Assembly: GCA_963706365.1 (NCBI GenBank)
Contig: OY970150.1
Span: 1,596,265-1,660,264, forward strand
Reading direction: 5' to 3'
DNA length: 64,000 nt
DNA from: an uncultured Alphaproteobacteria bacterium
GTDB lineage: Bacteria; Pseudomonadota; Alphaproteobacteria; JAJTHO01; G963706365
The translations under genes and the position numbers were made by a program. Under the pieces are notes generated by a model. It made no database searches. It was not told the origin of the DNA and was given only the letters and a program-made list of their open reading frames with translations. Shown piece by piece: positions 6,655-59,051 of this stretch. The number at the start of each line of letters is the position of its first letter. Position 1 is the first letter of the stretch.

Positions 6655-6700
6655 TAAGAACCAGTCAACTTAGAGCTTACCCCAAAACCCACGTAAGTTC
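6655..6700. repeat. Degenerate repeat copy: family B half-site (aagaaccagtcaact) followed by a family A left-arm-type sequence (agagcttaccccaaaacccacgtaagttc)
   Basis: It matches the left arm of the composite element near 53438-53470 (agagcttacaccaaaatccacgcgcaagttgaa). It lies between the purL start and the stop of the VirB6-like gene. Confidence 0.5.
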
Positions 6701-8139: not shown

Positions 8140-11100
8140 TAGCTATCTGATCCTCGGCTAGTGCTGCCTGCCATGGCCGGTTGTTTCGTGCCGGCTGTGG
8201 CGGTTGGTTTGCCAGCGGCAATTCTGTCAGATAAACTTTTGGCCAGGTTAGAATCAGATTTAGTATTGTCTAAGATATCTGTTTTGGCGCGGCGGCTGAA
8301 TGGTACAATATCATTGCGGGCATCTTGCATGTCATCAAAAATAGAACCTCTTTTGACTAAATTACCGGCATCTGCATCGGTGTTTTGTGGTTTCGGGCGT
8401 TCTGCTGTGATGCTGTCCAAGGCCATTTCGCGCTTTTCTGCTTCGCTATAGGCATTAAAGCTGTTGCGGTCTGCTGCGGTGGCGGTGGTTTTTTCCCATT
8501 CCTGTTTTTTAAATACATCGCCTGCGGCATGTCTTGCCCGGTTAGCATGAGCAGCTATATTATCAATTCTTGTGTTGGTGCCGCTGGTGGCTTGTAGGGA
8601 ATCTTTATAGTTATCAGAGACACTTTTCATTTGTGCTTTAATGGCTTGTTTATTGCTGCCAGCAACGCTGCTCATCCCGGCAATGCTTGCCACACCGGCA
8701 GCGGCCAATAAACCAGCGTTAATAGACTGTGTCTGACGATCTTCGCCCACAACATTCATATATTTTTCAACCGCTCTATCCATCTCGGCTTTATATTCTT
8801 TAACACTGCGTATCTCGCTTACATTGGCACTGGCCATGGCTTCAATACGGTCTTTCATGTAATCGTGTCTGCCTGTTGTGTCCTGTGTGCCAGCAACGGT
8901 TGTCGCCATTTTCATACTCGTGGCCTGAATTAAGGCAATATGCGCATTTTTCTCTAGTTCACGTTTTTCTTTACCACTCACAGCACCGCTTTGCAGATGG
9001 TCATTAAATTTATTTAAGCGGTCAATCAATTGATCTACATTTTGGTCATCATCGGCCAGTTGTGCAAGACGGTCTACTTGCTCTTTTTGTGTGGTGGCGG
9101 TGGGTTGGCCTGCGCGTCGCTGGGCATCAGCCATCAAGTTTAAACTTGCGTTCACGGCCTGGCGGCCAACACTTTTTCCTTTTAGAGCCTCGGTGAAATT
9201 ATCCATACCAATTTCACTGCCTAAACCGGCTCCTTCTAGAATATTGTTAGCTACATTCAGGCTTATTAAACCTGTTAATTTGGCGCCTCCCCAAGCAACC
9301 TTACCAGGTGTCACAGACGCAGCAACACTGCCAGGTATTCTTGACAGGCCTTTACCCATGGCACCAAAATATTCTTTGGTGCTGCCTACTTTATCAGCGG
9401 CAAAGGATCCCACCATAATGGCCGCCCCTAACGAAGTATTGATTGCAAATTCAACCACATTAAAGTTCTCAGCGGCATCAAACATATCATTAATCGCCTG
9501 TTTTGCTTCTTCAATTTGTTCCTGCACACGTTCTTGTAGATTGCTGATTTCTTCTTGTTTCTCTTCTTCTGTTACTTCGTTTTGTTGCAGTTCTTGTTCT
9601 TGCAATGCAATGTTTTGCTCGGTCATCTCGTCGATTTGACGATCTGCTTGTTTTAGTTCCTTAGAGGATATTTCGTCTAAAAGCTCATCATTAATTTCAC
9701 CGGCTTCTGCTATGGCTTCGGCATGTTCTGCATCAATTTCATTACCAGCCTGAACGGCATTAATGTTACCACCTGCCAAGGCTGCAACTGTTCCCATGCC
9801 CATACCTGCCATGGCTAGTGTCATAGTTTCTAATAATTCAGCTGCTTCTTCAGGATTTTCTTGCATGGCACGTGCTTGTTCTGCGGTAATACCCATTCCA
9901 GAAAGCTCGAAATCTTGCATAAAGCCATAGCCTTCTTCATAGCGGGGGCCATAACCGGCCGCCGTATCCTCCGTTCGGGGAATAGGTGCCGTAGTGTTGC
10001 CATAAGTTGCATTTTTATCGATGCCTAAGGCATTCGCCATTCCTTCCGGTAGCATAGACTGTGCAAATGGCGTTGCCACCCCGGCAACTGCGCCGCCGCC
10101 CTGTTTTAAGCCACTACCCAATAGCCCCGCCATAGAACCAAAAATCGCCATACCAATACCGCCCAAGGCAGGAGAGCCTAGAATAGTAGAGGTCATCGGG
10201 GCAATGTTTTTCATGGAATGTTTAGAAATTAAACCTGTTGCAAACAACAACCACCAGTCAACATTAGCCATAGAAACAGGCGGTGTTTTTTCTGGGGAGC
10301 CTGCACCGGCAACGCCAACCGCGCCTTCGGCTTGGTTGTAGACGATATCTGTCGGGTTTATTAGGCCGCCATTTAACCGAATCTCAAGGTGCATATGGGG
10401 GCCTGTTCCTATGCCGGTATTCCCAATTAAACCGACAACCGCACCGGCCCCTACTGTTTGACCGGCCGATGATAGTATTTTACTAAGGTGACAATACTTT
10501 GTTTCATACCCATCCTGATGGTCAATTTTAACCATATTACCACATCCACCCCCTACATTTTCAGCTACAAGAATCACTCCGGGTTTCATTGATAATTGTT
10601 TAGCACCAGCATCACAGCCTATATCAATACCGCCGTGGCGTCTGGTGCAATAAGAACGACACGCGCCCCATTTCTGTCCGCCATGCGTTCCGGGGGTACA
10701 CATTGTTTTATAATCATTCGCATCAATAGGAAATGTCCAGCCTGACCCCATAGGAAGTTCGTTTATAAGAGTTCCTGATTCACTACCATCAGCTTGTAAT
10801 AGTGTATCATAATATTCTAGCGTCTCTTTACGGGCATGCGTATATTCATCGACAGCGCCGCTGGCCGCGTAATCCTCGTAAATAGGTAATGCTGCAACAG
10901 GCTCATTCGGGTTAGAAATAGCCGGATCAACGCCATCTTCCACACCGTCTTCCGGTGTTCCATTCTCAGCGGCTTCGGCAGCTTCCGCATTTTCAATTTG
11001 TTCTTTAACGACCTCGGGAAAGGCATTAAACGCACCGGCCAGGGCAGATTCTGCGGTAGTTAAACGAATAACCGCATAGTGCACCATATGGCTTAGCAAT

Positions 11101-12236
11101 ACGGCAATGATGGCGGCAATAATAAAATTTAGGGCGGATTCCAGCACAACCTTGTAACCCAAAACAGCAAATTTTCGGGTAGAAGGGAAACAGGCACAAC
11201 CGGCTAGCACCGGTGTTAAAATACTAATAACTGTCCATTTAATCAGGGCATCAATCACCATCACTGAAAATAACAGGATAGGCAGAATAAACATGATGAT
11301 TAGTAACCCACCGGAAAATTTCCCGTCCCAGCTTCCATAACTACTAAACGTATGTATACCAACAGCCAGCCCATAGGAAAAGGCGCGTTGCAAGGTATGG
11401 ATCTGGCATTCCAGTTTATCCTTCATCAGGTGTTTTTCATTGGGTTCGCCATTAACGGTACTCATGCCCTCTAGGGCGGTTAAGTTAGTTGCATAACAAC
11501 CACGATCCCCTTTGTCCGGGTCAGAGCCCTGGTATCGTGCTTTATAAAGAAGAGAATCCTTTGGGCTGCCTTCTGTAATTATATCATAACCAAAATCAAT
11601 CCCACCACTTACCACCGGTTTATAGACATATTCCCAGTAAATATTATAACCACTGGCTGTAAAAGTGCCGACAACAAACAGAACCAGCATAACACGCACG
11701 AAAATGCTATTGCCGATATTGGCAATGCCGTTACTCGCGCCAAACGGCATCAAAATTTTAATAACCTGCCACATTATCCATAAGGCGAGTATGATGGCCA
11801 ATAGCTGCATAAATTTATCGCCGGCTTTATCCATCATTTCCGGTGGGTAAAGCATGGCCGCGGTAAAAATATGCGCGGCTATGGGGCAGACAAAACAGAA
11901 TTTCGACAAATTACCCTGAATTTCGCCAACAGATTTTTTGGCACCAGGGTCAGCAGCAACCATTTTGGTGCCATCATCACTTTGTGGAGTGCCTGCCCCT
12001 CCGTCTTGTGTTGTACTATCAGCAGGATCTAGCGTAGGGTCTTCCTCTGATGGTGTTTGACTTCCTCTTGTCTCGTTTCCCAGATTACTACCGTCCTGGC
12101 CAGGGTTGGCCGCATCATTATTGGCCTCAACATTATCCTGAGCATAAGCATCGCCAGAAAAACAGAGCATCAAGCAGCAAAAAATAACGAATAAAATGTG
12201 TCTAATCCGATACCTTTCCTGCTCTAAGTGATTCAT
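8139..12236 (-). CDS. Large VirB6/TrbL-like membrane protein with an embedded M23 (LytM-type) metallopeptidase domain and a long Gly-rich and coiled-coil C-terminal extension
   Basis: It is 1365 aa. A signal peptide and an acidic region precede the TM segments. A TrbL-like core spans about aa 110-390. The M23 motifs are HGGID (H-x3-D) and GNTGIGTGPHMHLEI (HxH), at about aa 495-630. Coiled-coil and Gly-zipper segments follow, running from about aa 640 to the C-terminus. Confidence 0.55.
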   Translation of the reverse strand: MNHLEQERYRIRHILFVIFCCLMLCFSGDAYAQDNVEANNDAANPGQDGSNLGNETRGSQTPSEEDPTLDPADSTTQDGGAGTPQSDDGTKMVAADPGAKKSVGEIQGNLSKFCFVCPIAAHIFTAAMLYPPEMMDKAGDKFMQLLAIILALWIMWQVIKILMPFGASNGIANIGNSIFVRVMLVLFVVGTFTASGYNIYWEYVYKPVVSGGIDFGYDIITEGSPKDSLLYKARYQGSDPDKGDRGCYATNLTALEGMSTVNGEPNEKHLMKDKLECQIHTLQRAFSYGLAVGIHTFSSYGSWDGKFSGGLLIIMFILPILLFSVMVIDALIKWTVISILTPVLAGCACFPSTRKFAVLGYKVVLESALNFIIAAIIAVLLSHMVHYAVIRLTTAESALAGAFNAFPEVVKEQIENAEAAEAAENGTPEDGVEDGVDPAISNPNEPVAALPIYEDYAASGAVDEYTHARKETLEYYDTLLQADGSESGTLINELPMGSGWTFPIDANDYKTMCTPGTHGGQKWGACRSYCTRRHGGIDIGCDAGAKQLSMKPGVILVAENVGGGCGNMVKIDHQDGYETKYCHLSKILSSAGQTVGAGAVVGLIGNTGIGTGPHMHLEIRLNGGLINPTDIVYNQAEGAVGVAGAGSPEKTPPVSMANVDWWLLFATGLISKHSMKNIAPMTSTILGSPALGGIGMAIFGSMAGLLGSGLKQGGGAVAGVATPFAQSMLPEGMANALGIDKNATYGNTTAPIPRTEDTAAGYGPRYEEGYGFMQDFELSGMGITAEQARAMQENPEEAAELLETMTLAMAGMGMGTVAALAGGNINAVQAGNEIDAEHAEAIAEAGEINDELLDEISSKELKQADRQIDEMTEQNIALQEQELQQNEVTEEEKQEEISNLQERVQEQIEEAKQAINDMFDAAENFNVVEFAINTSLGAAIMVGSFAADKVGSTKEYFGAMGKGLSRIPGSVAASVTPGKVAWGGAKLTGLISLNVANNILEGAGLGSEIGMDNFTEALKGKSVGRQAVNASLNLMADAQRRAGQPTATTQKEQVDRLAQLADDDQNVDQLIDRLNKFNDHLQSGAVSGKEKRELEKNAHIALIQATSMKMATTVAGTQDTTGRHDYMKDRIEAMASANVSEIRSVKEYKAEMDRAVEKYMNVVGEDRQTQSINAGLLAAAGVASIAGMSSVAGSNKQAIKAQMKSVSDNYKDSLQATSGTNTRIDNIAAHANRARHAAGDVFKKQEWEKTTATAADRNSFNAYSEAEKREMALDSITAERPKPQNTDADAGNLVKRGSIFDDMQDARNDIVPFSRRAKTDILDNTKSDSNLAKSLSDRIAAGKPTATAGTKQPAMAGSTSRGSDS
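10347..10754 (-). other. M23 peptidase catalytic domain within the 1365-aa VirB6-like protein
   Basis: The sequence TRRHGGIDIGCDAG ... YCHLS ... GNTGIGTGPHMHLEIRLNGG is the canonical LytM/lysostaphin-type zinc-binding motif set. Confidence 0.8.
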
Positions 12237-12353: not shown

Positions 12354-12875
12354 ATGGGATGGCGGAATAGGACAAATAGAAATCTGATTGCTAAAGAATT
12401 AGTGAATCGGAGTGACAGAGCGCAAAGGTGGGGTGCTTTTGCTGTTGTTAGTCTAATATCTACATTATCACTTGCTGTTGGTAATTTTACCGGCTGGAAT
12501 ACTTACAACTCAAATCAGCCAAAAAATCCTGATCAGCCTCAACCTGTAGATGTTATTGCCTCAGCGCCGACATTAAATGCTCATATTGAAGTTTTAGAGG
12601 AAAATTTAGAAGCACCAAGGATAGGTGGTTCAAGTACCATGACAATGGATCAAATTAATACGGCTGCAAAGCAGCTAGGATGGTCAACTGATATTGACCA
12701 GAATGCTATTGCTTCAGCAAACGAGACCGATAGCATTAAGACTTCTCCAGTAGAACAAGCACCCAGTGGGTATATAGGCGATATCGCTTTTACTATGCCG
12801 TCATCAGCCACCCCATCTGAAATTAATATGGCAGAATTTTCTATGTTGGTGTTAGGTTCTGGCAGAACAGGCTAA
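12354..12875 (+). CDS. Hypothetical membrane-anchored protein, divergent from the VirB6-like operon
   Basis: It is 173 aa. One N-terminal TM helix (GAFAVVSLISTLSLAVG) is followed by a low-complexity Pro/Gln/Ser-rich region. No recognisable domain. Confidence 0.4.
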   Translation: MGWRNRTNRNLIAKELVNRSDRAQRWGAFAVVSLISTLSLAVGNFTGWNTYNSNQPKNPDQPQPVDVIASAPTLNAHIEVLEENLEAPRIGGSSTMTMDQINTAAKQLGWSTDIDQNAIASANETDSIKTSPVEQAPSGYIGDIAFTMPSSATPSEINMAEFSMLVLGSGRTG

Positions 12876-18126: not shown

Positions 18127-18546
18127 CTACAGTTTCATAACACTGTTGCTCCATTCTTCTTTAAGTGCTTCTTGTTGTTTATCGACAATCACTAAGCGGC
18201 GTTGAATAATTTTGCGTTGAATAGCTTTTACAACCACCGGAACAGTGAAAACCACTAGCCAGCCAATACCGGCATAGCCATAAATAATTAGCCATGTTAA
18301 GCTGTCGGAAACCACCTTCATACCGGCATCCATATCTTGCCCTATGGGAATGAGATCCATCATATAAGGTACAATGCCGGCCATATTAAAAAAAGCGACA
18401 GTTTTAGGAATACTTCCGTTGCTGCGCGTGTCGCTAAATTTGGCGGCCAATGTTGGCACCAGGCCAATGAACAGCAAAATGGCCGCGGGTATAGACGCCA
18501 CGGCAATCATGATAACTAGTAGTAGAATCAGTATATTACTTTTCAT
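18127..18546 (-). CDS. Small hypothetical inner-membrane protein, translationally coupled to the upstream kinase-like gene by a 4-nt overlap
   Basis: It is 139 aa with 3-4 predicted TM helices. It has no recognisable domain. Confidence 0.4.
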   Translation of the reverse strand: MKSNILILLLVIMIAVASIPAAILLFIGLVPTLAAKFSDTRSNGSIPKTVAFFNMAGIVPYMMDLIPIGQDMDAGMKVVSDSLTWLIIYGYAGIGWLVVFTVPVVVKAIQRKIIQRRLVIVDKQQEALKEEWSNSVMKL

Positions 18547-20558
18547 CTTAAAGCGATTAGCCCTAAAGTTAGTAGCCCTGCCAACCCGCCAGAAACATAT
18601 GGTGCGTATTGGTCAGAAATTCTTCTAGATATAATCGGAAGTTGCTCCATTTCTCCTAATAGCTGTTCTTTCTTTTTTTCAAGGTTTTGGTAAACATTTT
18701 GTGCACGGCCAAATTCTTCGGAATCTTTCGCCAGCTCAATTGGCTGATCAACAATATTATGAATTTGGATTAAGCTGGCTTTCTTTTTTAATTTATCTAG
18801 TTGGTTGCGCACCAAGTTTTGTCTGGTTTTACTGTGATACAAGCCAATCATGGGGGCAGAAACTTTTAACAGCCATTTACATAGATAAGGGTAGTCCGCC
18901 TTGTTACTATAGGCATTTTCAAGCATACCCAATATTTGTACATTAGCCAAAGCAACTTTAGCCTTATTTTCATGCGCGGTTAAATTATAAAGCGTAACAT
19001 CTTTTATTTTATTGGTGTGGCTAACAAGAAAAGCGGCGATATGGCGGTCTATAGGCCAAAGTTTATGGTTGCTTTCTACTTTGGCAATTTCTTCTAAAGC
19101 ATCTAAAAGCTCTGCGGGGTTTCTTACCAGGTATTTTTCAAAGAGGGGGCTTTGGCACGGCAAGGTTTTATTAAGCTCATATAGGCAACGTTCAAAACCC
19201 ATGCCATAAGCTGTTTTATTGGCTATCAAGGATAGTTTTTCATATATTTTTTGAAGTATGATAAAGTTACTCAGATTATTGGAAGATCGACGCACCAGAT
19301 GAATGCGAAATTCCATAAAATGGCTTAGAATCAAATCAAATGGAATCATACGGCTAACAGCATCATGCTGATGCGCGGCCAATGCATCACAGATACCGTC
19401 TGTTGCGATAACCTTTTTTTGATAATAGATAGGCATATGATGGTCTATGCCACTTAATGCAAAAGTCGTTGTAACGTTTTGTTGAATGGAGGTGGGGGAT
19501 CTTTTAGAACGGTTTATACCATCCCTTAAATCGGTGTAGGCCGTTTTTTGATTGTTACTACGTACCAACCAGTTTTCCATATCTTTACTGGCTAGAATAC
19601 TTAGGGTATCTTTATTGTTATCCGTTACATTGGTACCAATGGCATTCACTAATTGGGCAACGCTAACATGATCCTTTTTTTGATAGAAAAAAGGACGCGT
19701 GGCTCTTCGGGCCGCCTGATTGTGGCGTAACGGCACTTTTTGCCCGGCTGCCCAGTCATCAACATCATTCAGTGTCCAGCGCTGTCGAGTATCGTCATTT
19801 AAGGTGCCTTTTAGTAATTCTGTTAAACGTTCAGAAAGGCGATATTCTCCTAAGAAAGCAGACAAGCTATTGCTTATAAGTCTTTGTTCTTGTAATATCT
19901 CCAGATTTTTTACCTGGCTAAAATCTTTACCAATGGCCATAGAAAGAACGACCATTCCCAGGCTAAAAATATCATGGCTTACTGTACCAGCGCCTCTGGC
20001 TTCGGAATCACATAAGCTGCTTTCCACCGGTTCATAAGGCTTTGGTTGTTTATAGCCGGGCGGCAACATGTAACACTCACCAAAGGTCAGATGATTTTGG
20101 AAAAAATACAGGTTATCGGGTCTTAAGCTGCGATAACTGATGCCTTTAGAATCAAAATCTCTAAGCAGGCGGACAAAGGGCTTAATAATCAATTCTGTAA
20201 TAGATTCTTCCCGATACTTAACGCCCCGCCCATCTTTTGTTAAGGGCAGCGGCACGCCTTTTGGTTTGACAGTAATAACCAAAATTCGATAGCGTTTTTC
20301 GCCCGGTAATAAAACCGGGAAATACTTTAATGGTCGCATAAGCATTTGCATATTACTGTGCGATAATTTTTCTAAAACAGTGTGGCGCGGCGGTAAAGTA
20401 GGGTGGCTGATTAAGCCAAGATATTCAGTAGTTTCTGTTTTAACAATGTGCGCCTGTATTAAATCAGTGCTGAATTTTTCCAGCGGTTTACCCAGCTGGA
20501 CGCTGTAAATTTTATCCAGCTGCGTAACAGCATTTTCTTTTAAGGCGATGGCGCGCAT
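18543..20558 (-). CDS. Hypothetical protein with a degenerate protein-kinase-like N-terminal region (pseudokinase-like) and a C-terminal membrane anchor
   Basis: ISYRSLRPDNLYFF resembles the HRDLKPxN catalytic loop, but the catalytic Asp is replaced by Ser. TFGECY resembles DFG. SHDIFSLGMVVLSMAIG resembles kinase subdomain IX (DxWSxG). The C-terminus is hydrophobic (GGLAGLLTLGLIAL). The N-lobe is shorter than in canonical eukaryotic protein kinases. Confidence 0.3.
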   Translation of the reverse strand: MRAIALKENAVTQLDKIYSVQLGKPLEKFSTDLIQAHIVKTETTEYLGLISHPTLPPRHTVLEKLSHSNMQMLMRPLKYFPVLLPGEKRYRILVITVKPKGVPLPLTKDGRGVKYREESITELIIKPFVRLLRDFDSKGISYRSLRPDNLYFFQNHLTFGECYMLPPGYKQPKPYEPVESSLCDSEARGAGTVSHDIFSLGMVVLSMAIGKDFSQVKNLEILQEQRLISNSLSAFLGEYRLSERLTELLKGTLNDDTRQRWTLNDVDDWAAGQKVPLRHNQAARRATRPFFYQKKDHVSVAQLVNAIGTNVTDNNKDTLSILASKDMENWLVRSNNQKTAYTDLRDGINRSKRSPTSIQQNVTTTFALSGIDHHMPIYYQKKVIATDGICDALAAHQHDAVSRMIPFDLILSHFMEFRIHLVRRSSNNLSNFIILQKIYEKLSLIANKTAYGMGFERCLYELNKTLPCQSPLFEKYLVRNPAELLDALEEIAKVESNHKLWPIDRHIAAFLVSHTNKIKDVTLYNLTAHENKAKVALANVQILGMLENAYSNKADYPYLCKWLLKVSAPMIGLYHSKTRQNLVRNQLDKLKKKASLIQIHNIVDQPIELAKDSEEFGRAQNVYQNLEKKKEQLLGEMEQLPIISRRISDQYAPYVSGGLAGLLTLGLIALR

Positions 20559-26275: not shown

Positions 26276-29200
26276 ATGAAAATCAATGCTATTTATGAAG
26301 TTCCAAAGAACGGAATTACAGTAAAAAACGGTGCTGATGGAACATCCTATTATAGATCAACAGAGGGGGATGATTTACAAAGTACTGATAACTGGGCAAT
26401 TAAAGATACAACTGGTCTATTTAGCGCTGTTCCAGAAGTTGTTAGTTTTCATTTTCAACTTAGTGATTTACATAGTTATGATGAGTTTTCAGCAAATGCA
26501 ACTAAAGACTACTTTGTTGTTTATGCCGATAAAACAATAAAAGTTGATAAAGCTAATGCTCCTGAAAATGCAGGTTACAAAAACTCCCATTATAGAACTG
26601 CGTATTACATTAGCAAGAAAGAGGCTGAGAAGTATGAAATTAAAACACCAGACGAATTTTTAGAATATTGCAACAGATTTACGGGCACTGCCCATAATCA
26701 AGGTATGTATGACATTAACCCTGATGAGCAAAATTTGGCTCAAGGATATGTTGCCACTTTTGCTAAAACTGCATCTGGAAAACTAAAAGATTGGCCAAAA
26801 GAAAAGCCAGCGGCTGAACGAGAGGCTTTTGAAGAAGAGGTTGTTTTAGAGTCAGATATAGAATCCTTAAAAAATACATCTACACAAGATCTCCGCCGCA
26901 GAATTTTATTTGATGCTGAGCAGTCTGAAAAAGATGAAATAGCTGTGGTTTTGGTTGATAGGGCGCTAAATATTATTAAAGACAGAGGCTTAGAAGATTA
27001 TACATTTTTAAACCGCGGTGATGAAATTGCAAATATTCACTCTGCCCTCGCAAACGCTTATAAAGCTGATTTGCAAGGGAGCAGAAGAGCCGATATTGGT
27101 TTTAAAAGTAGCACTGATAGATTTGTTGAGGATTTACAATATATTTTACATGCGGTGAATGACTTAACTAAGTCTTCGTTTCAAGATAGAATTGCCGAAA
27201 TATCATCTACTTCTAATGAGGTTGGTAGTCCGGAATCAGAAGTTGAACCTATGTCCACGGAAAGGATATCTGAGCCTGATGATGTAACTCACACTATAGA
27301 TCTTGAAGCTGACACATCGACAAAAACAGTCAAAAAAAATATAATTTCTCGCGTCTGGGATAGCACTGTAGGGAAAATTTTAATTGGTTTAGGGCTTGTT
27401 TCAGGGGCAACGTCAATTGGCTACAAAGCGATAGATTCAGCTATGAAATCTACACCAACAGCTCCTGCGCAAAGCGAGCCAAATATAGAACAGCCTTACG
27501 AGCAACCAGTCGCTGAATCAGTTCCTACAACGCCAGAGGAAATCGTTGAAGAATATAGTCTTAATGAATTCAATGCTTTGACAAGGGAGTCTGAACTCAT
27601 TCCTGATGGAAATACCTTTGTCTACCAAGATGGCGAATTAGTTGCTGAAATTAGCAATAGTGACTATGATAAGCTATCAGGTCTTTATACCCAACGAGAA
27701 CTGTCTTTATCTAACACTGATACTCAACCGTACTCTGAGCCATTTATTGAAAGTTCAGAAAGTACAGTGAATTTTGAAAAATTACAAGATACCATACCCT
27801 CAGAAATTGAAACAATTGCACCAGATGTAGCCGATGCTCAGGAACTAGAAATTGCTGATATTAAGAAAATGCAACAAGGTTTGCAAAAGGCGGCAAACCG
27901 TCTTGAAGAAGCCCGGCAAGCTTCTAATGTTGGTGGTTTCAGGTTTGAAGGATTGCAAGAGTTTTCTGGAATAGAAAATATGAATTCTGCTGAATTGCAG
28001 CAAGTTTTAGAGAGTGGTGCAGAACTTCATTCAGCGTTCAGCAGCGAGCAAGGGGCAAAAGATTTCCTTTACCATGTTGCAAGCCAAAGTGATGGTCAGC
28101 TAACATCTGATGAAATTGATTATATCCAAGGCTTGAAAGGTGAAGTGCAGCATATTACAGCCGCTGTTGAGCATGCACAAAAATCAGTAGACGAAAGCAC
28201 CGCTGCTTTTGCTGATGCTGCTGAGACTTTAAATAAAAGTGGTTTTGAAGATGTCAAAGCAGACGACCTTGTCGCAATAATGGATAGTCACGCCAATTCC
28301 AATGCAGGCGGACAGGGGATAGACCTGATGCACAACATACAGCAAGAGTTAACTTCCAATCTATCGGCTTATGAACAACAACAATTAAGCTCTCTTGCAC
28401 CTAATTCCGTTTCAAATGATTCATTTGCGCATGCTTCTGCTGATGGCAGCATACATGGTTTTACGCAAAATAATTACCAAGCGCCATTAGCTGGCCAAAG
28501 ATTGGCATGGCAGTTGGAGACGAAAATGGCGCAGGCGGGAGAAGCTTTGCAAACTGCGGGTGAAAAATTGGGTAATTTGTGGGAAAATACCGCTGGTCAA
28601 TTGTCGAGCGAGCAATGGGCAGTTGTTGGTAAAGTTGGCGGATTCGCTGCATCTGCTGCTTTTACAGCAGCCTCAATGCGCCGCTTGTCACAACAAGAGG
28701 AAACAACCAGAACCCAGCGTGTTAACTTTGCGGGCAGCATGGCACGTACAACGCTGATGGGTGTGGGTTTTGCAAACCCCATGGCTATGGCTGCTGCTGG
28801 TGTTGTGGGTGGTGCAACAAAGGTTTGGTCACTTGCACAGGAAGAAACTCTTCAACAGTTGCAATCTTCAAAAGAAAATTTAACAGCAAAACGTATAGAT
28901 ATCCATGAAACAAAATCTACTGGTGTGCTAAGTGGTTTGCATAATACTTTTGCAAAAACATCCAATAGTGTCAAACTAGGTATGACCAACGCACAATTAA
29001 CTGTTTCACAACCTTTAAATGCATCGCGGCAGGTAACAGAAGCGGTGGCAACTGATGCTGCTAATAAAATTGCAACAGGCGTTGACTCTATTCATAGTAT
29101 GGCTCCACAAGATGGTGCGCTAGCCAATTTTATCGTAAAAAAATCAACAGGCACTTTACAGGCTGTAACCGATTTAGGAAAAGAAACAGGCGGCATGTTC

Positions 29201-47121: not shown

Positions 47122-48285
47122 TTGCACTGCAATAAGATAAAAATCTTTTATACTGTGTGCGTGCAACATTTAAAATATTCACTTTCTCTTGCCTTCTTCT
47201 TGGTGCAACCGCTGCAAGCGCAACAGCAAGAGCTGCCTGAAAAATGGTTGGCTGATAAAATGACCAATTGTAAATTGTTGGTTGCTGGCCGTGCGAAGCG
47301 GCTTATTTATAAAGGCGATTGCGAAAACGGCTTGGCAGAAGGTTATGGGGATGTCGAAATATACAAAAAACCTATTGGCCGTGAACGTTACGACGGTGGT
47401 TTTACATCAGGTTTACACATTGGCGAGACTTATACAAAAGGCGAGATTTTTGAAGTTGCCAATACTTATTATTTCACACTGGCGCCAGACAAGTCTTTTT
47501 ACACAATTATTCAGCCCAAATCTGAAAATACGGTTTTGTGCAGTGGCCAGGCGGCAATGGGGGTAGAGGGTTCGAATGTAGAAGTTGCTGCAAAATCTTT
47601 GGGAGCGCAATATAACACGGTCTGTCAGGAACGAAGTAATACAACATCACAATTGTTTGTGCAACTGTTAGACAAAAAAGCATTGGATAAAGGCCAGCAA
47701 CTGGTTACCGGTTCCCTTATGTTGAATTTGAATGGCGACCAATGGGCTGTTTCTGATTTACAAATAACTCAACCCACTAGAACAGTTAAAAATCCTCAGC
47801 AACAGCCGCCCGATGAATTACAGATAGAGCAAACGTCTGCCCCTGTTAAGTTAGTGAGGCAGCCCGTAAAAGAGGTGGCGTCGTCTACGCCTTTAAACTT
47901 AACGTTATACTCTGAGGTAATTGGCAAAAAGCAACCGCGTTGTAAGCTTAATCTTTCATTTCATAATACTGGCGTAAATACCATTGGCAGTTTTTCCACA
48001 ACGGGCAATCTGTTAAATAGAAATGGTAATATTTTGACGCCTTTTCAATTATCCAGCAAAGCTATGTTACCAGAGGGTTCCAGGCACAAAATGACCAAGG
48101 TTTTGCCTTTTGAATTTTGTAAACCCTATGGGCAGCCTGCCCAGCTAGCAGAAAAAGTCAATTTTCAGCAGCTAACCTGTAGAAACGCCAGTGGTCAAAC
48201 GATCTCTTGCTTTGATAAGATTCGCTTAATACCGTTACCACAAAATTTACGGCAAACACAGACAGCGCTATTTGTTATGCAATAA
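47122..48285 (+). CDS. Hypothetical secreted protein
   Basis: It is 387 aa with an N-terminal hydrophobic signal-like region (SLSLAFFLVQPLQAQQ) and no recognisable domain. Confidence 0.4.
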   Translation: MHCNKIKIFYTVCVQHLKYSLSLAFFLVQPLQAQQQELPEKWLADKMTNCKLLVAGRAKRLIYKGDCENGLAEGYGDVEIYKKPIGRERYDGGFTSGLHIGETYTKGEIFEVANTYYFTLAPDKSFYTIIQPKSENTVLCSGQAAMGVEGSNVEVAAKSLGAQYNTVCQERSNTTSQLFVQLLDKKALDKGQQLVTGSLMLNLNGDQWAVSDLQITQPTRTVKNPQQQPPDELQIEQTSAPVKLVRQPVKEVASSTPLNLTLYSEVIGKKQPRCKLNLSFHNTGVNTIGSFSTTGNLLNRNGNILTPFQLSSKAMLPEGSRHKMTKVLPFEFCKPYGQPAQLAEKVNFQQLTCRNASGQTISCFDKIRLIPLPQNLRQTQTALFVMQ

Positions 48286-51383: not shown

Positions 51384-51761
51384 GTGCCCTCTATCAAAAA
51401 AATTCTAATTGTCGAGGATAATGCCCTGAACCTTAAGCTATTTCGGGATATTTTATCCACACAAGGTTATGAAATTATTGCAAGCAAAGATGGCGTTAAT
51501 GTTGTGGAAATTGTAGCCGAGCAACAGCCTGATTTAATTCTCATGGATATACATCTACCGGAATATTCTGGCATGGATATAACAGCTGCCTTAAAAGCAG
51601 ATGGACGGACAGCACATGTACCAGTTGTGGCCATTACCGCCTTTGCAATGAAAGGGGATAGAGAAAGAATCATTGAAAGCGGTTGCCAAGATTATATTAG
51701 CAAACCAGTCACCTCAATCCCCGATTTTATTGCTACAATTCAAAAGAATATGGGGGAATAG
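51384..51761 (+). CDS. divK: Single-domain response regulator DivK (CheY-like receiver)
   Basis: It is 125 aa and receiver-only. The phospho-acceptor Asp sits in LILMDIHLPEYSGMD. It is followed by pleD, as in Caulobacter. Confidence 0.8.
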   Translation: MPSIKKILIVEDNALNLKLFRDILSTQGYEIIASKDGVNVVEIVAEQQPDLILMDIHLPEYSGMDITAALKADGRTAHVPVVAITAFAMKGDRERIIESGCQDYISKPVTSIPDFIATIQKNMGE

Positions 51762-51762
51762 T

Positions 51763-53151
51763 ATGTCTGGGCGCGTCTTAATTGTTGATGATATTGCACA
51801 AAACGTCAAGTTGCTGGAAGCCAAGCTATCAGCAGAATACTTTGATGTTATTAGTGCTACGAACGGCGAGGATGCCTTAAAAATAGCCGAAGAACAGTTG
51901 CCGGATATCATTTTGCTGGATGTGATGATGCCGGGAATGAATGGGTTTGAGGTTTGTGAGCGGCTGAAAGAAAATAAGGCAACAAGACAAATTCCTGTGG
52001 TGATGGTAACAGCGTTAAGTGAAACGGAAGATCGTGTAAAAGGCTTGCAGGCCGGTGCAGATGAATTTTTAAGCAAGCCTGTAAGAGATATTCCTTTAAT
52101 GGCGCGTGTGCGTTCCTTGGTGCGACTAAAAAGTTTGCTAGATACCTTGCAAATTAGAGAGGGCAATACCGGAGATATAGATTCGTTTCAGCGGGAAGAA
52201 GACGAGCCGTTAGCCGCAAATATTGCCTTTGTCAGTGATGACCGCATTGCTTCTAGACAATTTAAACGTATTTTAGAGGAAGATGGCCATCATCTGAAAG
52301 TTTTTGATACTATCGATGAATTAAAGCAGTATATGGCCGAATTCCATGATAGCAGTATGGGGGTAGACTTGGTTATCAGCCTTTTACATATTAATGGTCA
52401 GGAAATATTACGCGATTGTGTAGGCCTAAGAAATATGGAATACAGCCGACACACCCCAGTTTTGTTAGTGGCGGAAGAGGAAGACGAGCAGCTGTTGGCA
52501 AAGGCGCTAGAGATTGGCGTTAGTGATTACATTATGCGGCCTGTTGATGGACATGAGTTGCTGGCACGGGTTCGCACCCAACTAAAACGTCTACGCTATC
52601 AACAACGCCTGAAACGCACCTACCGTCGATCCATCAAAATGGCGCTAACGGATGATTTAACCCGCTTATATAATCGTCGTTACTTTAATATGTACATGAA
52701 CGATTTGCTGACTAAATCTTTAGCAACCAATAAATCGGTTAGTTTATTACTTATTGATATTGATAAATTTAAAAATGTTAATGATACCTATGGCCATGAT
52801 GTGGGGGATCGTGTGTTGCAGGTAACTGCAGAGCGACTGCGTAATAGTGTAAGGGATTGCGATTTAATCGCACGCCTGGGTGGAGAAGAATTTATCGTTG
52901 TCATGCCTGATTCACGCATAGGGCTGGGGGTTGATGTGGCAGAGCGCTTACGCCACGCCATGGAAAGCCAACCCATTGAAATAAGGCAGGCAAATGGCGA
53001 GCCGCTATCTTTACAAATAACCATCAGTATTGGCATTTCCTGTAGTAGAACGGTGCAGAATGCGACACGCGATGTTTTATTAAAGGTAGCTGATGATGCC
53101 CTTTATCAAGCTAAAAATTCTGGCCGAAATTTAGCTGTAGTGGGCACCTAA
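51763..53151 (+). CDS. pleD: Response regulator and diguanylate cyclase PleD (two receiver domains plus GGDEF). The start is at MSGRVL; the ORF track begins at 51673.
   Basis: Two receiver domains are followed by a GGDEF domain (RLGGEEFIV). The divK-pleD synteny is preserved. Confidence 0.85.
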   Translation: MSGRVLIVDDIAQNVKLLEAKLSAEYFDVISATNGEDALKIAEEQLPDIILLDVMMPGMNGFEVCERLKENKATRQIPVVMVTALSETEDRVKGLQAGADEFLSKPVRDIPLMARVRSLVRLKSLLDTLQIREGNTGDIDSFQREEDEPLAANIAFVSDDRIASRQFKRILEEDGHHLKVFDTIDELKQYMAEFHDSSMGVDLVISLLHINGQEILRDCVGLRNMEYSRHTPVLLVAEEEDEQLLAKALEIGVSDYIMRPVDGHELLARVRTQLKRLRYQQRLKRTYRRSIKMALTDDLTRLYNRRYFNMYMNDLLTKSLATNKSVSLLLIDIDKFKNVNDTYGHDVGDRVLQVTAERLRNSVRDCDLIARLGGEEFIVVMPDSRIGLGVDVAERLRHAMESQPIEIRQANGEPLSLQITISIGISCSRTVQNATRDVLLKVADDALYQAKNSGRNLAVVGT

Positions 53152-53682: not shown

Positions 53683-54384
53683 ATGAGTAAAAAAAACACG
53701 ATTCTGATTGTTGAAGACGAACCGCAAATTCGTAAACTATTGACAATTACTTTGGAAACAGAAGGCTTTAAAGTTATTGAGGCGCATAATGGTGGCGAGG
53801 GTACACGCATGTCTATGAGTGTGAAGCCTGATTTAGTATTACTAGATTTAGGCTTGCCGGATATGGACGGTAAAGATGTGGTGGCTGCTATTCGAGGCTG
53901 GTCACAGGCCATGCCGATTATTATCTTATCTGTTCGTAGCGATGATGACGAGGTTTCTAATGCATTAAACGTTGGGGCTGATGATTATATTACCAAACCT
54001 TTTAACCCTGATGTTTTGTTAGCGCGTATTAATGCGAATCTTCGCAAAGCCGCACGGCAAGAATCAGGGGGCGAAACGGAACTTATAAACGGCCATATTA
54101 AAATGGACTTGGTGCGCCATGAAGTGTTTGTGAATAATAAGAAGGTATCCTTTACACCCAAAGAATATGAATTGCTGCGTTACTTAATTGTGCACCGCGG
54201 TAAAATGCTTACGCATAAAATGCTGTTAAAAGATGTTTGGGGGCCAGCACATGCCGATGATATGCAATACCTGCGTGTTTACATCAGCCAAGTACGTGAA
54301 AAAATTGGTGAAGACCCTTCAAGCCCGCGTATTATTATAACAGAACCAGGGGTTGGGTATAGAATGGAAACAGTTGCCAGTTAA
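53683..54384 (+). CDS. OmpR-family response regulator, KdpE-like (receiver plus winged helix). It is an orphan: no sensor kinase or kdp genes are adjacent.
   Basis: ILIVEDEPQIRKLL...LLDLGLPDMDG is the receiver. LTHKMLLKDVWGPAHADDMQYLRVYISQVREKIGEDPSSPRIIITEPGVGYR is the winged helix and closely parallels the KdpE C-terminus. Confidence 0.75.
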   Translation: MSKKNTILIVEDEPQIRKLLTITLETEGFKVIEAHNGGEGTRMSMSVKPDLVLLDLGLPDMDGKDVVAAIRGWSQAMPIIILSVRSDDDEVSNALNVGADDYITKPFNPDVLLARINANLRKAARQESGGETELINGHIKMDLVRHEVFVNNKKVSFTPKEYELLRYLIVHRGKMLTHKMLLKDVWGPAHADDMQYLRVYISQVREKIGEDPSSPRIIITEPGVGYRMETVAS

Positions 54385-54539: not shown

Positions 54540-55877
54540 ATGAACTTACCAAATGTACCTACCAAGCTTTTAGAAAAAATTGCAAAAAAGCGTGATGTTG
54601 TTAAAAGTCCATATTCTGTTGAGGAGCTAATAGCAGCTTGTTCAGATGAGGCATTGGTAGATGATGATGTTAAGGCCTTAATAGATCTACTGAATGCGAA
54701 AAATGCGCAACAGGAATTTGCTTTTTATGAACATGAAAATGTTGTCTATTTTTGTCACTTTGATAAGTCAGGCACATTGTTAAAAGATGATCCTGTCTTT
54801 TATAGAATCGATGATGTGCTGCATGTAAAGACAGAAAATGGTGATTTTGTTGAATATCTTGAGCCGCATATTAGGCGTAAAGATAAAGAACTATTACGAA
54901 AGCTTGATGAAGAACCTAAAACAAAATATCTCTGGTGTGCGCAAAGGGGTAATGTAAAAGGAAAACTTAACTTTAGTTATCAAGGACTTTTGATTTCCTT
55001 TAATAGGGAACAGGAATATGGTGTTTTCAACCATGTTTTCAGTTCATGTAACGGCCATAACCGCCATTATATGTTTGAAACAGGCCATGACCAGCCACCT
55101 AATAGTGAATTTAGCTTGCAAGAAAAAATAAGTTATAGTATGCAGGCGCTTTGGTTTAGTAGGGTTGGTGATAAAGCGCGTATTAAAAATATGGGGCGCT
55201 CCGTTGGTGCACTTGATGAGGCTATGGGAATACCGGTTAGTGAAACACAAGCCGCTTTTTATCATGCTGATTTATGCTACGATAAGATGTACACAGACGT
55301 TGGTTTACGTTACATGATTAAACCAGGAAATCCCCACATAGATAACGAGCACTTAGGCAATAAATACCGGCATTGTGGTGTTGATCTATTTAGGGTTTTA
55401 CATTCTTTAGGCCTATTTCCACATGTTAATCCTAGTATAGCAGGGCATCAGCAGGAAATCAGTTTGGCACGAGAGGATACGAACAATAAAAAAATAGATA
55501 GCACAGAAAGAATTAATAACAGGCTAAATATTTTCCGACCAGATACCTTAAAACGGATTCAAGATTGGTGCTTAGGTAACCATCAAGCAATTATAGGTAA
55601 ATTTAATACACAATGGGGAGAGGTTAAGCTTTGTGAAACAAAAACACGTGTAGGTATGTCTACCCTTATGCTAGATACCAGTAATCTCAAAGAGATGGAT
55701 GATATCCCACTCATACTTCAAGATTTGAAAAATCGGTATGGATTAAATTTTGAGGGCAATATTTCAGAAGGACAACTCTACAAAATTGAAAATTTAGATT
55801 ATTATCAAGCTGCACGGATGCATGATAAAATAGCTGAATCTTCACCATATAGAAATTACGAACTAGCTAGAAACTAA
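54540..55877 (+). CDS. Hypothetical protein (445 aa), AT-rich orphan and candidate effector
   Basis: The frame is clean and the upstream region is AT-rich. No recognisable domain. Confidence 0.4.
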   Translation: MNLPNVPTKLLEKIAKKRDVVKSPYSVEELIAACSDEALVDDDVKALIDLLNAKNAQQEFAFYEHENVVYFCHFDKSGTLLKDDPVFYRIDDVLHVKTENGDFVEYLEPHIRRKDKELLRKLDEEPKTKYLWCAQRGNVKGKLNFSYQGLLISFNREQEYGVFNHVFSSCNGHNRHYMFETGHDQPPNSEFSLQEKISYSMQALWFSRVGDKARIKNMGRSVGALDEAMGIPVSETQAAFYHADLCYDKMYTDVGLRYMIKPGNPHIDNEHLGNKYRHCGVDLFRVLHSLGLFPHVNPSIAGHQQEISLAREDTNNKKIDSTERINNRLNIFRPDTLKRIQDWCLGNHQAIIGKFNTQWGEVKLCETKTRVGMSTLMLDTSNLKEMDDIPLILQDLKNRYGLNFEGNISEGQLYKIENLDYYQAARMHDKIAESSPYRNYELARN

Positions 55878-56599
55878 GAACCAGTAACAATATTTTCTTC
55901 CAGCCAAGTTGTTAAACAGTCTGTTTCATAATCGACAAAATCTTGGTGCCCGGAGGGACTCCCCAAATATTTGTATTCATCGTGTTCTACTTTTATCAAA
56001 ACAGTGGCAATGCCCAAGGCTGCGGCGGGTTCAAGGTTGCGAGGGATGTCTTCAAACATTATGGCGCGCTTGGGGTTAATATTTAATTTTTTCAGCATCT
56101 GGTCATAAATTGATTTATTCGGTTTTGGCAGATAACCCGCATCAATAATATCAAAAGAGCCATGAAAGAGATGCTCCATTTCCATATGTGTTAAAATATT
56201 TTGCATATGGTTGCGGCAACCATTGGTAAAAATAACTTTTTGGCCTGGATAATTTGCAAGAAAATTAACCAATCTGACATTTGGGGGAATAGGGGAGGCG
56301 TCAATGTCATGCACGTAGTTCAAAAACTCTTCTGCATCAACCTTATGATTTTTTAGCAAACCTTGTAGCGTGGTGCCATGATCGTAAAAATACTGTTTCT
56401 GCAATTTGCGAGCGGCTTCAATATCTAAATCTAGTAAATTAGCTACATATTCTGTCATCTTCCTATCAACCTGATCAAATAAGCGGCAGGAAGCGGGGTA
56501 AAGGGTATTATCCAGATCAAAAATCAGGACATCACGTTCAGCAATAGAAGAAACAAGCGGCATTGTAAACTTTGTAACAGGGTTTAAGCGCTGGTGCAA
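55874..56599 (-). CDS. HAD superfamily hydrolase (pyrimidine 5'-nucleotidase-like)
   Basis: VLIFDLDNTLY is HAD motif I. The HAD fold is present. The start may be at M13, which would remove the overlap with doxX. Confidence 0.75.
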   Translation of the reverse strand: MHQRLNPVTKFTMPLVSSIAERDVLIFDLDNTLYPASCRLFDQVDRKMTEYVANLLDLDIEAARKLQKQYFYDHGTTLQGLLKNHKVDAEEFLNYVHDIDASPIPPNVRLVNFLANYPGQKVIFTNGCRNHMQNILTHMEMEHLFHGSFDIIDAGYLPKPNKSIYDQMLKKLNINPKRAIMFEDIPRNLEPAAALGIATVLIKVEHDEYKYLGSPSGHQDFVDYETDCLTTWLEENIVTGS

Positions 56600-57027
56600 T
56601 TTATGCGTTTGTGTAAAAGGTAGTCTAGGCCAAACTTGCCGCTACCCTGTGTGAAAATTATAGCGGTCAATAGCATCCAATAGTAATGCTCTGTTGTGTT
56701 GGGGTAAACCAATGTTTCAATAACTAATGACATCACAAACAAGCCTAATGCCGCAACAGGTGTAAATAAGCCAATAATTAATAAGGAGGGTAATATAAGT
56801 TCACCCGCTGTACCCAAATAAGCCGCCAGTTCATAGGGTATAATTGGCAAAGAATATTCAAAATCGAACAAAGCCAACGTACCTTCCCAATCTTTTAATT
56901 TTAATAGGCCAGCTTTTAAAAACACATTGGCAATCCACAATCTGGCAGCCAGTAGAGCGATGGACTGCAATAGATAGGGTGCAATAGTAAGCGATGGCTT
57001 GGTAGCTAAGCACAATAATTTTTTCAT
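56584..57027 (-). CDS. DoxX family membrane protein (bufferin operon accessory, BufD-like)
   Basis: It is a DoxX-like four-TM protein of 147 aa. It sits in an operon with DUF2063, DUF692 and DUF2282. Confidence 0.7.
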   Translation of the reverse strand: MKKLLCLATKPSLTIAPYLLQSIALLAARLWIANVFLKAGLLKLKDWEGTLALFDFEYSLPIIPYELAAYLGTAGELILPSLLIIGLFTPVAALGLFVMSLVIETLVYPNTTEHYYWMLLTAIIFTQGSGKFGLDYLLHKRINCTSA

Positions 57028-57758
57028 AACTTTTCCTGTGTGGTGAAAACACCGTTGTTGATGATATGCGCGAACAGTTGCTGGAACAGTTGCGGTTCAG
57101 TAGTTTGTTGTAAGGTCGTTTGCAAAGCTGTTAAAAAAGGTGATTGAAGCATTACTTTTTTCAGAAAAATTAACGTGATAGCATCAACTGGCAACATCAT
57201 TATAATGTCTTTTTGATTGCGCCATACCAGTAAATGATTCTTACCTGTTGTTAGAGAAATCTCGGGCACCGGGGATTGTTGATGGGCTTGCCATATTTCC
57301 AGGGCGTTATGCTCTAAAATTAATAAATGGGCAGAAGGATGCAGGTGTAATGTATCAGCAGCTGTTAAGAAGGATAGTTTTTCAAAACCAATGGCCAAAG
57401 CATCTTTTGCGGTGCCTGCATCAGCATAGGCATACTCTAGTGTTGCGATATCGCCTAGATAGGGTAAGTCAGTGCTATCTTGTTTTAGAAATGCTGCAAA
57501 GCCTTGCCCCACGCTGTTAGAATGCCCTAATGTTTGGGGGGATTGTTTGATATATTTTTGAGCCAGCTGCTGAAAATAATGCTCTCCCACAATTTGCTGT
57601 GTTGCTGGAAATATATTTTGTAATACATTTGTCATACCTAATAAGACATTGTTTTGATAAATATTTAATCGCTCAATGGGGGAGGCTAATGAGGTTTCTA
57701 TGGTTGATGAGCCTTGAAATATATCACGCAAAAAGTCTTGCTGTAATTTAGCTAGCAT
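57024..57758 (-). CDS. DUF2063 protein (BufC-like partner of the MNIO enzyme)
   Basis: Its position immediately downstream of, and overlapping, the DUF692 gene is the conserved gene order of bufferin/MNIO operons. Confidence 0.6.
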   Translation of the reverse strand: MLAKLQQDFLRDIFQGSSTIETSLASPIERLNIYQNNVLLGMTNVLQNIFPATQQIVGEHYFQQLAQKYIKQSPQTLGHSNSVGQGFAAFLKQDSTDLPYLGDIATLEYAYADAGTAKDALAIGFEKLSFLTAADTLHLHPSAHLLILEHNALEIWQAHQQSPVPEISLTTGKNHLLVWRNQKDIIMMLPVDAITLIFLKKVMLQSPFLTALQTTLQQTTEPQLFQQLFAHIINNGVFTTQEKL

Positions 57759-58587
57759 GGGTGACCTTTTGAAAAGAACGGTTATGATTTGCTAAAATAG
57801 CATCCGCTTTCGCTGCCTCTTTTAACAAAATATCAATATCAGGAATATCCGTATCCCATTCAATAAGTGTCGGAACAGTGCCAAATTTTTCTATCGTATA
57901 CTGATACAATAGCCAGACACTATCGTGCACTGTTTTGCCGTGTGTATCGAGATATATTTCCTCTCCATTAGCCAATTTATTCACCTGGTAACCAGCTAAA
58001 TGGATTTGATCAATTTTTTGAATGGTATCTATATAGGCGTTGGCATCGTAGCCAAGGTTATGGGCGCTTACGGCAATATTATTAATATCGAGTAACAGGC
58101 CACAGCCAGTTTTATCTGTTAAAATATTCAAAAATTCTGGCTCAGAATACTTTGTTTCTTTGAAAGCAATGTAATTAGAGGGATTTTCAATTAAAATTTC
58201 TCGACCAATAAATTTCTGAAATTGTTGAATATGCTTTATAAATATATTCAAGGATTCATCAATAAAAGGAATAGGCAGTAGGTCAGGAACATGCCGGTGA
58301 TTATAGCTGCTCCAGCTTAAGTGCTCGGAAACAAATAGTGGGTCAATATCATCAACCAGAGATTTTAATTCGGTTAAATGTTGTTCTTCCAAGCCGCTGG
58401 CGTCCCCCAAAGAAAGGCCGACACCATGCAAACTAATGGGGTAATGTTGCCTTAGCTGTTTCAGTTGTTTGCGCGGTTTACCACCCCCAAAATAGTTTTC
58501 GCTGTGTACCTCCAAAAAACCTACATCATAGGCTTTTTCAAGAAAGTCTTGTTTATGCGGCGCACGCAAACCTATACCGGTTTTCAT
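57748..58587 (-). CDS. DUF692 (UPF0276) multinuclear non-heme iron oxidative enzyme (MNIO, BufB-like)
   Basis: MKTGIGLRAPHKQDFLEKAYDVGFLEVHSENYF is the typical DUF692 N-terminus. The fold is TIM-barrel xylose-isomerase-like. Confidence 0.8.
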   Translation of the reverse strand: MKTGIGLRAPHKQDFLEKAYDVGFLEVHSENYFGGGKPRKQLKQLRQHYPISLHGVGLSLGDASGLEEQHLTELKSLVDDIDPLFVSEHLSWSSYNHRHVPDLLPIPFIDESLNIFIKHIQQFQKFIGREILIENPSNYIAFKETKYSEPEFLNILTDKTGCGLLLDINNIAVSAHNLGYDANAYIDTIQKIDQIHLAGYQVNKLANGEEIYLDTHGKTVHDSVWLLYQYTIEKFGTVPTLIEWDTDIPDIDILLKEAAKADAILANHNRSFQKVTHAS

Positions 58588-58656
58588 TAAGAATATTTTA
58601 CGAAAATTATCATCTCTTAAAAGAAAATACCCCGAGAAACCCCGGGGTAATATTCG

Positions 58657-58926
58657 CTACATTTTTGCTTCTTTTTCTACAACTTTACCACCAGCGATTT
58701 TTTCGCATGTACCTTTTGGCACAGAAATCCACTCGTTAGGGTCGTTGTCTACTTTTGCTTGCCCGGCACAACTGTGGCCGTTTGCCGCGCAATCGTTCAT
58801 TTCCGCTTTCACAATTCCAGCACACTTTTCGCGTTTGGCGGCATGGGCATCTGTAGGGGTTGCTAGCATGGCGGCACCAGCGATAAACGCGGTTACTGTT
58901 GCTGTTGTTATTAGAGGTTTTACCAT
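58657..58926 (-). CDS. DUF2282 bufferin-type RiPP precursor peptide (BufA-like): Sec signal peptide plus a core with four Cys residues
   Basis: [29 protein letters not shown] is the signal peptide. The core is [51 protein letters not shown]. The Cys spacing is typical of DUF2282. Confidence 0.7.
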
Positions 58927-59051
58927 AATTCTTATCCTTTTGGTTTACACAGGCAGCACCTGATAAAAAAACAATAAATAGAAATATTATCAATGGCTAT
59001 CAGTTTTTAAGGATTCATTATTGATATAATATTGTGCTATAAGCATCAGCA

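Follow-up and report, generated by a model that had tools for sequence, protein, structure and literature searches.

We analysed a 64,000-nucleotide stretch of DNA from an uncultured alphaproteobacterium (contig OY970150.1 of assembly GCA_963706365.1, positions 1,596,265 to 1,660,264), hereafter called the window, which carries an operon for a bufferin-type peptide made by ribosomes and modified after translation (RiPP). The operon consists of four intact open reading frames (ORFs) on the minus strand within positions 58926-56584, in the order A-B-C-D. bufA (58926-58657) encodes an 89-aa DUF2282/BufA1 precursor, bufB (58587-57748) a 279-aa maturase of the MNIO (DUF692) family, bufC (57758-57024) a 244-aa DUF2063 partner protein, and bufD (57027-56584) a 147-aa integral membrane protein of the DoxX family. 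The bufB and bufC genes share 11 nt, the overlap of bufC with bufD is 4 nt (ATGA), and a gap of 69 nt separates bufA from bufB. An earlier note on this DNA, made from the sequence alone, had described the same four ORFs as a bufferin operon, and its strand, coordinates and overlaps agree exactly with ours. The Pfam matches of all four proteins are far beyond chance: BufA reaches 85.8 bits against PF10048 (DUF2282; gathering cut-off 22.4, E 2e-24) over profile positions 2-52 of 53, BufB 320 bits against PF05114 (MNIO, MbnB_TglH_ChrH; cut-off 25, E 1e-95), BufC 66 bits against PF09836 (DUF2063; cut-off 27.2, E 3e-18), and BufD 57 bits against PF07681 (DoxX; cut-off 23.6, E 2.5e-15) together with 27.7 bits against DoxD. 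The accessions PF09836 and PF05114 had been quoted correctly in the note, and its identification of the 89-aa ORF as a DUF2282 precursor holds, with a score well above the cut-off. The first reading as a bufferin operon is thus correct but not new: current Pfam and NCBI models already have names for these proteins, and the operon is an ordinary Buf1-type member of a widespread family whose described homologues number in the thousands (PMC11626156, PMC12452194).

The BufA precursor begins with a predicted signal peptide of residues 1-29 (58926-58840), in which a short, positively charged n-region (Lys3) precedes an 18-residue hydrophobic stretch (Kyte-Doolittle 2.1) and a c-region ending in the predicted cleavage site AHA|A. 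The signal peptide has neither a lipobox nor a twin-arginine motif, and the homologues align with equivalent signal peptides. This N-terminal segment is the only hydrophobic one in the protein. Because the core contains none, BufA is expected to be a secreted small protein, in contrast to the "integral membrane protein" of which the old Pfam entry speaks. The core comprises 60 aa (residues 30-89) and contains Cys35, Cys46, Cys53 and Cys74 in the arrangement C-x10-C-x6-C-x20-C, hereafter CysI to CysIV; these are the four core cysteines that the note had counted. In its unmodified form this core (AKREKC...EAKM) has a calculated monoisotopic mass of 6313.06 Da. All four, as well as N44 and G72, are invariant in alignments of 24 and 115 homologues (Cys 115/115), and invariance in the family extends to the sequence contexts ND-C and S-C-AG and to the spacings C-x10-C and C-x20-C. 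An AlphaFold2 model of BufA, calculated from the 115-sequence alignment, has a core predicted local distance difference test (pLDDT) score above 90, with strands at residues 32-36 and 66-70 and a helix at 73-76. In the published BufA1 fold, a sheet of two strands, the first of which carries CysI, is combined with a short helix that contains CysIV, and the predicted model reproduces this arrangement. A search of the PDB with the BufA fold gave no meaningful match, and no bufferin structure is deposited there. The score against the BufA2 model NF050166 was only 21.3 bits (cut-off 60), and BufA has four core cysteines instead of six, indicating that it is not a Buf2 member. Translation of bufA is served by a good ribosome-binding site, with the Shine-Dalgarno sequence AAGGA at 58939-58935, 8 nt before the ATG.

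The loop between CysII and CysIII of BufA has six residues, AANGHS. Among the DUF2282 domains encoded at 74 related loci, which were collected by scanning species-representative genomes for BufB relatives of 33-52% identity, this loop falls into three classes of six (x6, 20 domains), seven (x7, 24) and eight (x8, 23) residues. The x7 loop (AAGPGTS/KAGPGTS, the Caulobacter type) never contains a histidine, whereas 22 of the 23 x8 loops do. In BufA, His51 (codon 58774-58776) stands two residues before CysIII and is invariant in all 115 nearest homologues.

BufB is assigned by the NCBI equivalog model NF050167 (MNIO_BufB, "MNIO family bufferin maturase") with 347 bits against a cut-off of 310, while the HvfB, MbnB, ApyH and ChrH equivalog models all remained below their cut-offs on this protein. 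The iron ligands of MbnB are His54, His90, Glu133, Asp163, Asn166, His192, Asp208, His210 and Glu239 (PMC9060507). Their counterparts in the alignment are H54, H89, E134, D167, N170, H196, D214, H216 and E243 of BufB, so that all nine MNIO ligands are kept and the DUF692 protein can be regarded as an MNIO enzyme with its iron-binding residues, as the note had proposed. These nine positions are conserved in 72 of 72 BufB sequences from the related loci wherever they are aligned, one sequence being gapped at H54. The nearest solved structure is that of a Histophilus DUF692 protein (3BWW, E 2e-38). No obvious Shine-Dalgarno sequence precedes bufB.

BufC combines a helical N-terminal domain with a C-terminal alpha/beta domain resembling a RiPP recognition element (RRE), and its entire length is covered by a match to the HvfC family (E 5.6e-16), with a score under the equivalog cut-off. 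The homologue search gave only seven relatives, and the AlphaFold2 model of BufC, with a pLDDT of 83.8, therefore rests on a shallow alignment of 7 sequences. A Foldseek search with this model revealed similarity over both domains to NGO1945 (3DEE, E 1e-7) and to TglI (8HCI_A, E 9e-6), the partner of the MNIO enzyme TglH; MbnC matched weakly (E 0.3). From the superposition of the model on NGO1945 and TglI, BufC can be assigned to the DUF2063/RRE type of MNIO partners. The DoxX protein BufD is small and polytopic, with hydrophobic segments. A DoxX gene lies 3' of bufC in most related loci, and such a gene at the operon end is frequent in Buf1 operons without being obligatory.

The order bufA-bufB-bufC(-bufD) is common to most of the 74 related loci, which bears out the note's statement that DUF2282-DUF692-DUF2063-DoxX is a conserved architecture. 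Variants include tandem bufA genes and fusions of bufB with bufC. In six loci (L021, L022, L031, L035, L039 and L072, mostly of Oxalobacteraceae/Burkholderiales type) bufB and bufC form a single ORF, and the top BufA matches include 150-aa precursors with two tandem DUF2282 domains (P0002-P0004). In metagenome-assembled genomes of SUP05/Thioglobus-like bacteria (L012, positions 1133-1833; L029; L034), genes for a YgaP-like transmembrane protein and a secreted rhodanese are inserted between bufA and bufB, which suggests a link to sulfur transfer in this lineage. A second, distinct bufB-bufC pair was found on a Logan contig from ERR12040027 (L076, positions 56-1595), a sequencing run whose Logan assembly also contains the proteins of the window; its BufC is 52% identical, no DoxX gene follows, and the contig ends before bufA. 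The source of this pair is presumably a related organism that was present in the sample.

A terminator-like hairpin (58618-58649, minus strand) lies directly 3' of the bufA stop codon. In a terminator scan it appeared as a stem-loop at 58649-58628, with a GC-rich stem of 9 bp and a loop of 4 nt, followed by UUUUCUUUU at 58627-58618. The 83-nt stretch over the bufA-bufB gap (58670-58588) folds with a minimum free energy of -20.1 kcal/mol and retains the hairpin in its centroid structure, and the best 45-nt window of the gap has a z score of -4.9 against shuffled sequences. In about one third of the related loci (20 of 58) the gap likewise contains a hairpin with z <= -2, often with a perfect stem of 10-15 bp; strong hairpins were found in L014, L016-L019, L023-L028, L030, L032, L033, L036, L038, L039 and L063. 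Matched upstream control regions fold slightly less stably than the gaps, with medians of -12.7 and -15.8 kcal/mol, respectively (Wilcoxon p = 0.03). Neither a terminator nor a hairpin is mentioned in the two papers on bufferins. Judging from other RiPP operons, the hairpin is probably a partial terminator (attenuator) that raises the ratio of precursor to enzyme mRNA. Such an element, present in about one third of the operons, would set the precursor-to-enzyme ratio.

The intergenic region upstream of bufA (58927-59051) is shared with a divergent gene for a retropepsin-like protein. A scan for consensus sigma-70 promoters found no site upstream of bufA, and the best hit of a relaxed scan had 8 of 12 matches. 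The sigmaF motif of Caulobacter is GTAACC-N16-CGAA. An exact match to GTAACC-N15-17-CGWA was not found anywhere in the window, and boxes with two mismatches occurred 56 times against 68 expected by chance, none of them upstream of bufA. With no exact box, and with two-mismatch matches at or below the chance level, sigmaF-type regulation was rejected. A GTAAACC sequence just before the bufA ribosome-binding site was also considered as a -35 element and rejected, as it lies too close to the ATG. The note had pointed to the region upstream of position 58926 as a place for copper-responsive elements. Neither a sigmaF box nor a MerR-type dyad was found there, only short AT-rich inverted repeats. 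Nor did we find a copper-homeostasis gene or a copper-responsive regulator in the window.

As the note had remarked, no extracytoplasmic function (ECF) sigma/anti-sigma pair adjoins the operon, and a jackhmmer search detected no SigF- or NrsF-like ORF in the entire window. Its suggestion that regulation may differ from that of characterised operons is right, but the unusualness of this was overstated, as only 15 of the 74 related loci have an ECF sigmaF/NrsF pair within 4 kb, mainly in Sphingomonadales, Caulobacterales and Xanthomonadales. Since the pair of the model system is missing from most of the relatives recovered here, its lack in the window is no anomaly. The closest BufA relative with usable context (L077-L079, 71% identity) does have a divergent sigma/NrsF pair, and in L077 two divergent GTAACC-N16-CGTA boxes match the Caulobacter sigmaF motif. 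A gene for a fused MsrA-MsrB methionine sulfoxide reductase (L077, positions 1322-2278) adjoins the sigF-nrsF pair beside that buf operon.

The founding Buf1 system is buf1ABCD of Caulobacter vibrioides (CCNA_03363-03366; Leprevost et al., PNAS 2024, PMC11626156). In its precursor core, with cysteines at positions 12, 23, 31 and 52 and the contexts Asp22-Cys23 and Ser30-Cys31-Ala32, Cys23 and Cys31 are converted into 5-thiooxazoles, and a disulfide joins Cys12 to Cys52. BufB and BufC are both required for installing the two 5-thiooxazoles and together suffice for it, and the product binds Cu2+ with a dissociation constant of about 6e-15 M; DoxX is dispensable for both the modification and copper protection. 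The 5-thiooxazole assignment has been confirmed independently, twice. The operon in the window shares with this system the four gene families and their order, the Sec signal peptide, the predicted precursor fold, and the combination of an MNIO enzyme with a DUF2063 protein. The note had proposed to confirm the Cys spacing against Caulobacter BufA1. In a comparison based on the published positions of the cysteines and the residues next to them, the x10 and x20 spacings agreed, as did the D-C and S-C-A contexts at both modified cysteines, but the CysII-CysIII loop is one residue shorter. The core of 60 residues is also shorter than the 68 of Caulobacter Buf1. Furthermore, unlike the Caulobacter operon, the one in the window has no adjacent sigF-nrsF genes and no GTAACC-N16-CGAA promoter, and it has the bufA-bufB hairpin. 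The closest relatives of its BufB recovered from other genomes are only ~44-52% identical.

The same DUF2282-DUF692-DUF2063-DoxX architecture is found in the gig operons (named for gold-induced genes) of Cupriavidus metallidurans and Legionella pneumophila (lpg2105-2108; PMC5413113). The Legionella copy is located on an integrative conjugative element, is metal-induced and is possibly under the influence of RpoS (PMC5413113), whereas the operon studied here lies between housekeeping genes (mfd, smr and the nucleotidase gene) with no compositional anomaly. The EGKCG captophorins (oxazolin HvfABC-X of Haemophilus, gonophorin and fontiphorin; PMC11252979, PMC13097082) likewise pair an MNIO enzyme with a DUF2063 protein (PME1), with or without DoxX, and they also install 5-thiooxazoles and bind copper (PMC11252979, PMC13097082). 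The best structural matches of BufB and BufC, 3BWW and 3DEE, belong to these systems. However, BufA has no EGKCG repeat, and the window proteins score below the cut-offs of the corresponding models (HvfB 217 against 360 bits, HvfC 59 against 142, HvfX 44 against 80). The methanobactin system MbnABC shares the MNIO fold, the identical set of nine iron ligands and cysteine as the target. Unlike methanobactin, with its oxazolone/thioamide chemistry, leader-dependent precursor, dedicated exporter and role as a chalkophore for copper acquisition, the window system has a DUF2063 partner instead of MbnC, and its maturase is only distantly related, reaching 76 bits against the MbnB model TIGR04159 (cut-off 325). 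An oxazolone/thioamide product, also considered for BufA, has become unlikely through the published reassignments.

The analysis establishes which genes the operon contains and in which order, the families of their products, the conserved catalytic and substrate residues and the predicted folds, and we conclude, with a probability of about 0.9, that bufABCD is a complete and apparently functional Buf1-type bufferin operon, gig-like and of the "captophorin" kind. The characterised Caulobacter system provides the model for how the peptide would be modified and exported, for its binding of copper and for its physiological role. By this analogy, BufA would be made as the 89-aa precursor, and BufB together with BufC would use O2 in the cytoplasm for the four-electron oxidation of Cys46 and Cys53, each to a 5-thiooxazole. 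The Sec machinery would then export BufA, signal peptidase would cut after Ala29, and a disulfide between Cys35 and Cys74 would lock the small fold of beta-sheet and helix. The mature 60-residue periplasmic peptide would chelate Cu(I)/Cu(II) through its thiooxazoles and thus buffer copper excess. BufD (DoxX) would be an accessory membrane protein, and the hairpin 3' of bufA would end part of the transcripts, leaving more precursor than enzyme mRNA. The locus would then be one more instance of a copper-buffering RiPP, previously unannotated, in a deep-branching, low-GC alphaproteobacterium with a small genome.

Several observations weigh against this interpretation. BufC and BufD fall below the HvfC and HvfX equivalog cut-offs, although such a shortfall is no surprise with models that describe the EGKCG sister systems. 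The x6 loop with its histidine differs from the His-less x7 loop (KAGPGTS type) of Caulobacter Buf1, Glu42 of BufA (codon 58801-58803) replaces a glycine found in 106 of the 115 homologues, and the signal peptide was assessed by hand. Copper induction is unsupported at this locus, since the window has no copper regulator, no sigmaF box and no copper gene. Nothing in the sequence contradicts the Buf1-type assignment, however, and part of these observations would suit a system with the same machinery and a thiooxazole peptide but another role, namely to buffer or acquire a soft metal other than copper, such as gold, cadmium, silver or zinc, or to take part in a DoxX-linked response to redox or sulfur stress. 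Depending on the species, the gig operons answer to gold, to cadmium or to copper, and in Bordetella virulence control governs them; the bufferin authors themselves left metal specificity and the role of DoxX open. The different loop class with its invariant histidine near CysIII, the missing copper genes and regulators around bufABCD, and the rhodanese and YgaP-like genes between bufA and bufB in SUP05-type relatives point in the same direction. We nevertheless consider such a role improbable, as every characterised bufferin binds copper and protects against it, and thiooxazole thiolates are classic Cu(I) ligands.

It is also conceivable that bufABCD is silent or decaying, a relic in a reduced genome of about 1.9 Mb that yields no functional product. 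This would be consistent with the failure to recognise a promoter upstream of bufABCD or a cognate sigma/anti-sigma pair in the window, with the terminator-like hairpin directly before bufB, and with the lack of an obvious Shine-Dalgarno sequence in front of that gene. However, the four ORFs are intact and translationally coupled, the catalytic ligands and the family-invariant substrate residues are all retained, bufA has its good ribosome-binding site, and the GC content of the operon (0.38-0.42) shows no difference from the flanks. Because the ORFs are intact and the key residues fully conserved, we regard decay as very improbable. Within the bufferin assignment, a more specific proposal can be made tentatively, although we think it rather doubtful: the x6 His loop would represent an uncharacterised class that forms a different metal site, made of two thiooxazoles and a histidine imidazole, with a different metal affinity or specificity, and it would operate independently of a sigmaF/NrsF circuit and under attenuator tuning in an alphaproteobacterium that may be host-associated. 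A single Buf1 has been studied biochemically; it has the seven-residue loop lacking histidine, and just one of the three DUF2282 CysII-CysIII loop classes has been studied.

The gene downstream of the operon encodes a HAD-type pyrimidine 5'-nucleotidase (55874-56563, minus strand; TIGR01993, 182 bits against a cut-off of 143), for which the start called on the Logan contig L001 was adopted. Only 20 nt and no terminator separate it from bufD, and it is possibly co-transcribed with bufABCD. The nucleotidase is not part of the system and shows no link to other buf loci, with one distant match in the 74 loci. A 445-aa ORF (54540-55877, plus strand) that has no Pfam or NCBIfam match is convergent with the nucleotidase gene, the 3' ends overlapping by 4 nt, and this pair of genes also occurs on L001. 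On the other side of the operon, the divergent neighbour (59052-59687, plus strand) encodes a retropepsin-like or "Zn_protease" protein (RloA3-like, below the cut-off), the domain of which is split by an acidic, Glu-rich insert, EETIEDTEEEEEEEQE.

The remainder of the window consists of housekeeping genes and orphan ORFs, and scans for Rfam families and tRNAs gave no match in the 64 kb. An orphan OmpR-family response regulator gene (53683-54384, plus strand) has no adjoining kinase gene. Its product was considered as a copper regulator and rejected, as it scored below every equivalog cut-off (heavy-metal subfamily, 146 against 279 bits). At 51384-53151 (plus strand) a DivK-like single-domain response regulator is encoded together with PleD (540 bits, above the cut-off), a pair that is an alphaproteobacterial hallmark. 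The relatives of Mfd are only ~50% identical and occur in Parvibaculum, Rhodospirillales and Sphingomonadales. Judged from these sequences, the DivK/PleD pair and the distant Mfd relatives indicate that the host is a deep-branching alphaproteobacterium. The low GC content, the small contig, a VirB6/TrbL-like gene, MgtC and the large ORFs with no Pfam domain hint at a host-associated lifestyle. These large ORFs lie at 26276-29284 (plus strand, 1002 aa), 18543-20558 (minus, 671 aa, with only a faint protein-kinase match), 47122-48285 (plus, 387 aa) and 12354-12875 (plus, 173 aa), and may be lineage-specific or effector-like. Within 6700-12236 (minus strand), the TrbL/VirB6-like protein (479 aa) is encoded directly downstream of a 1365-aa protein in which an M23 peptidase is the only recognisable domain, and the two genes may represent a remnant or module of a type IV secretion system.

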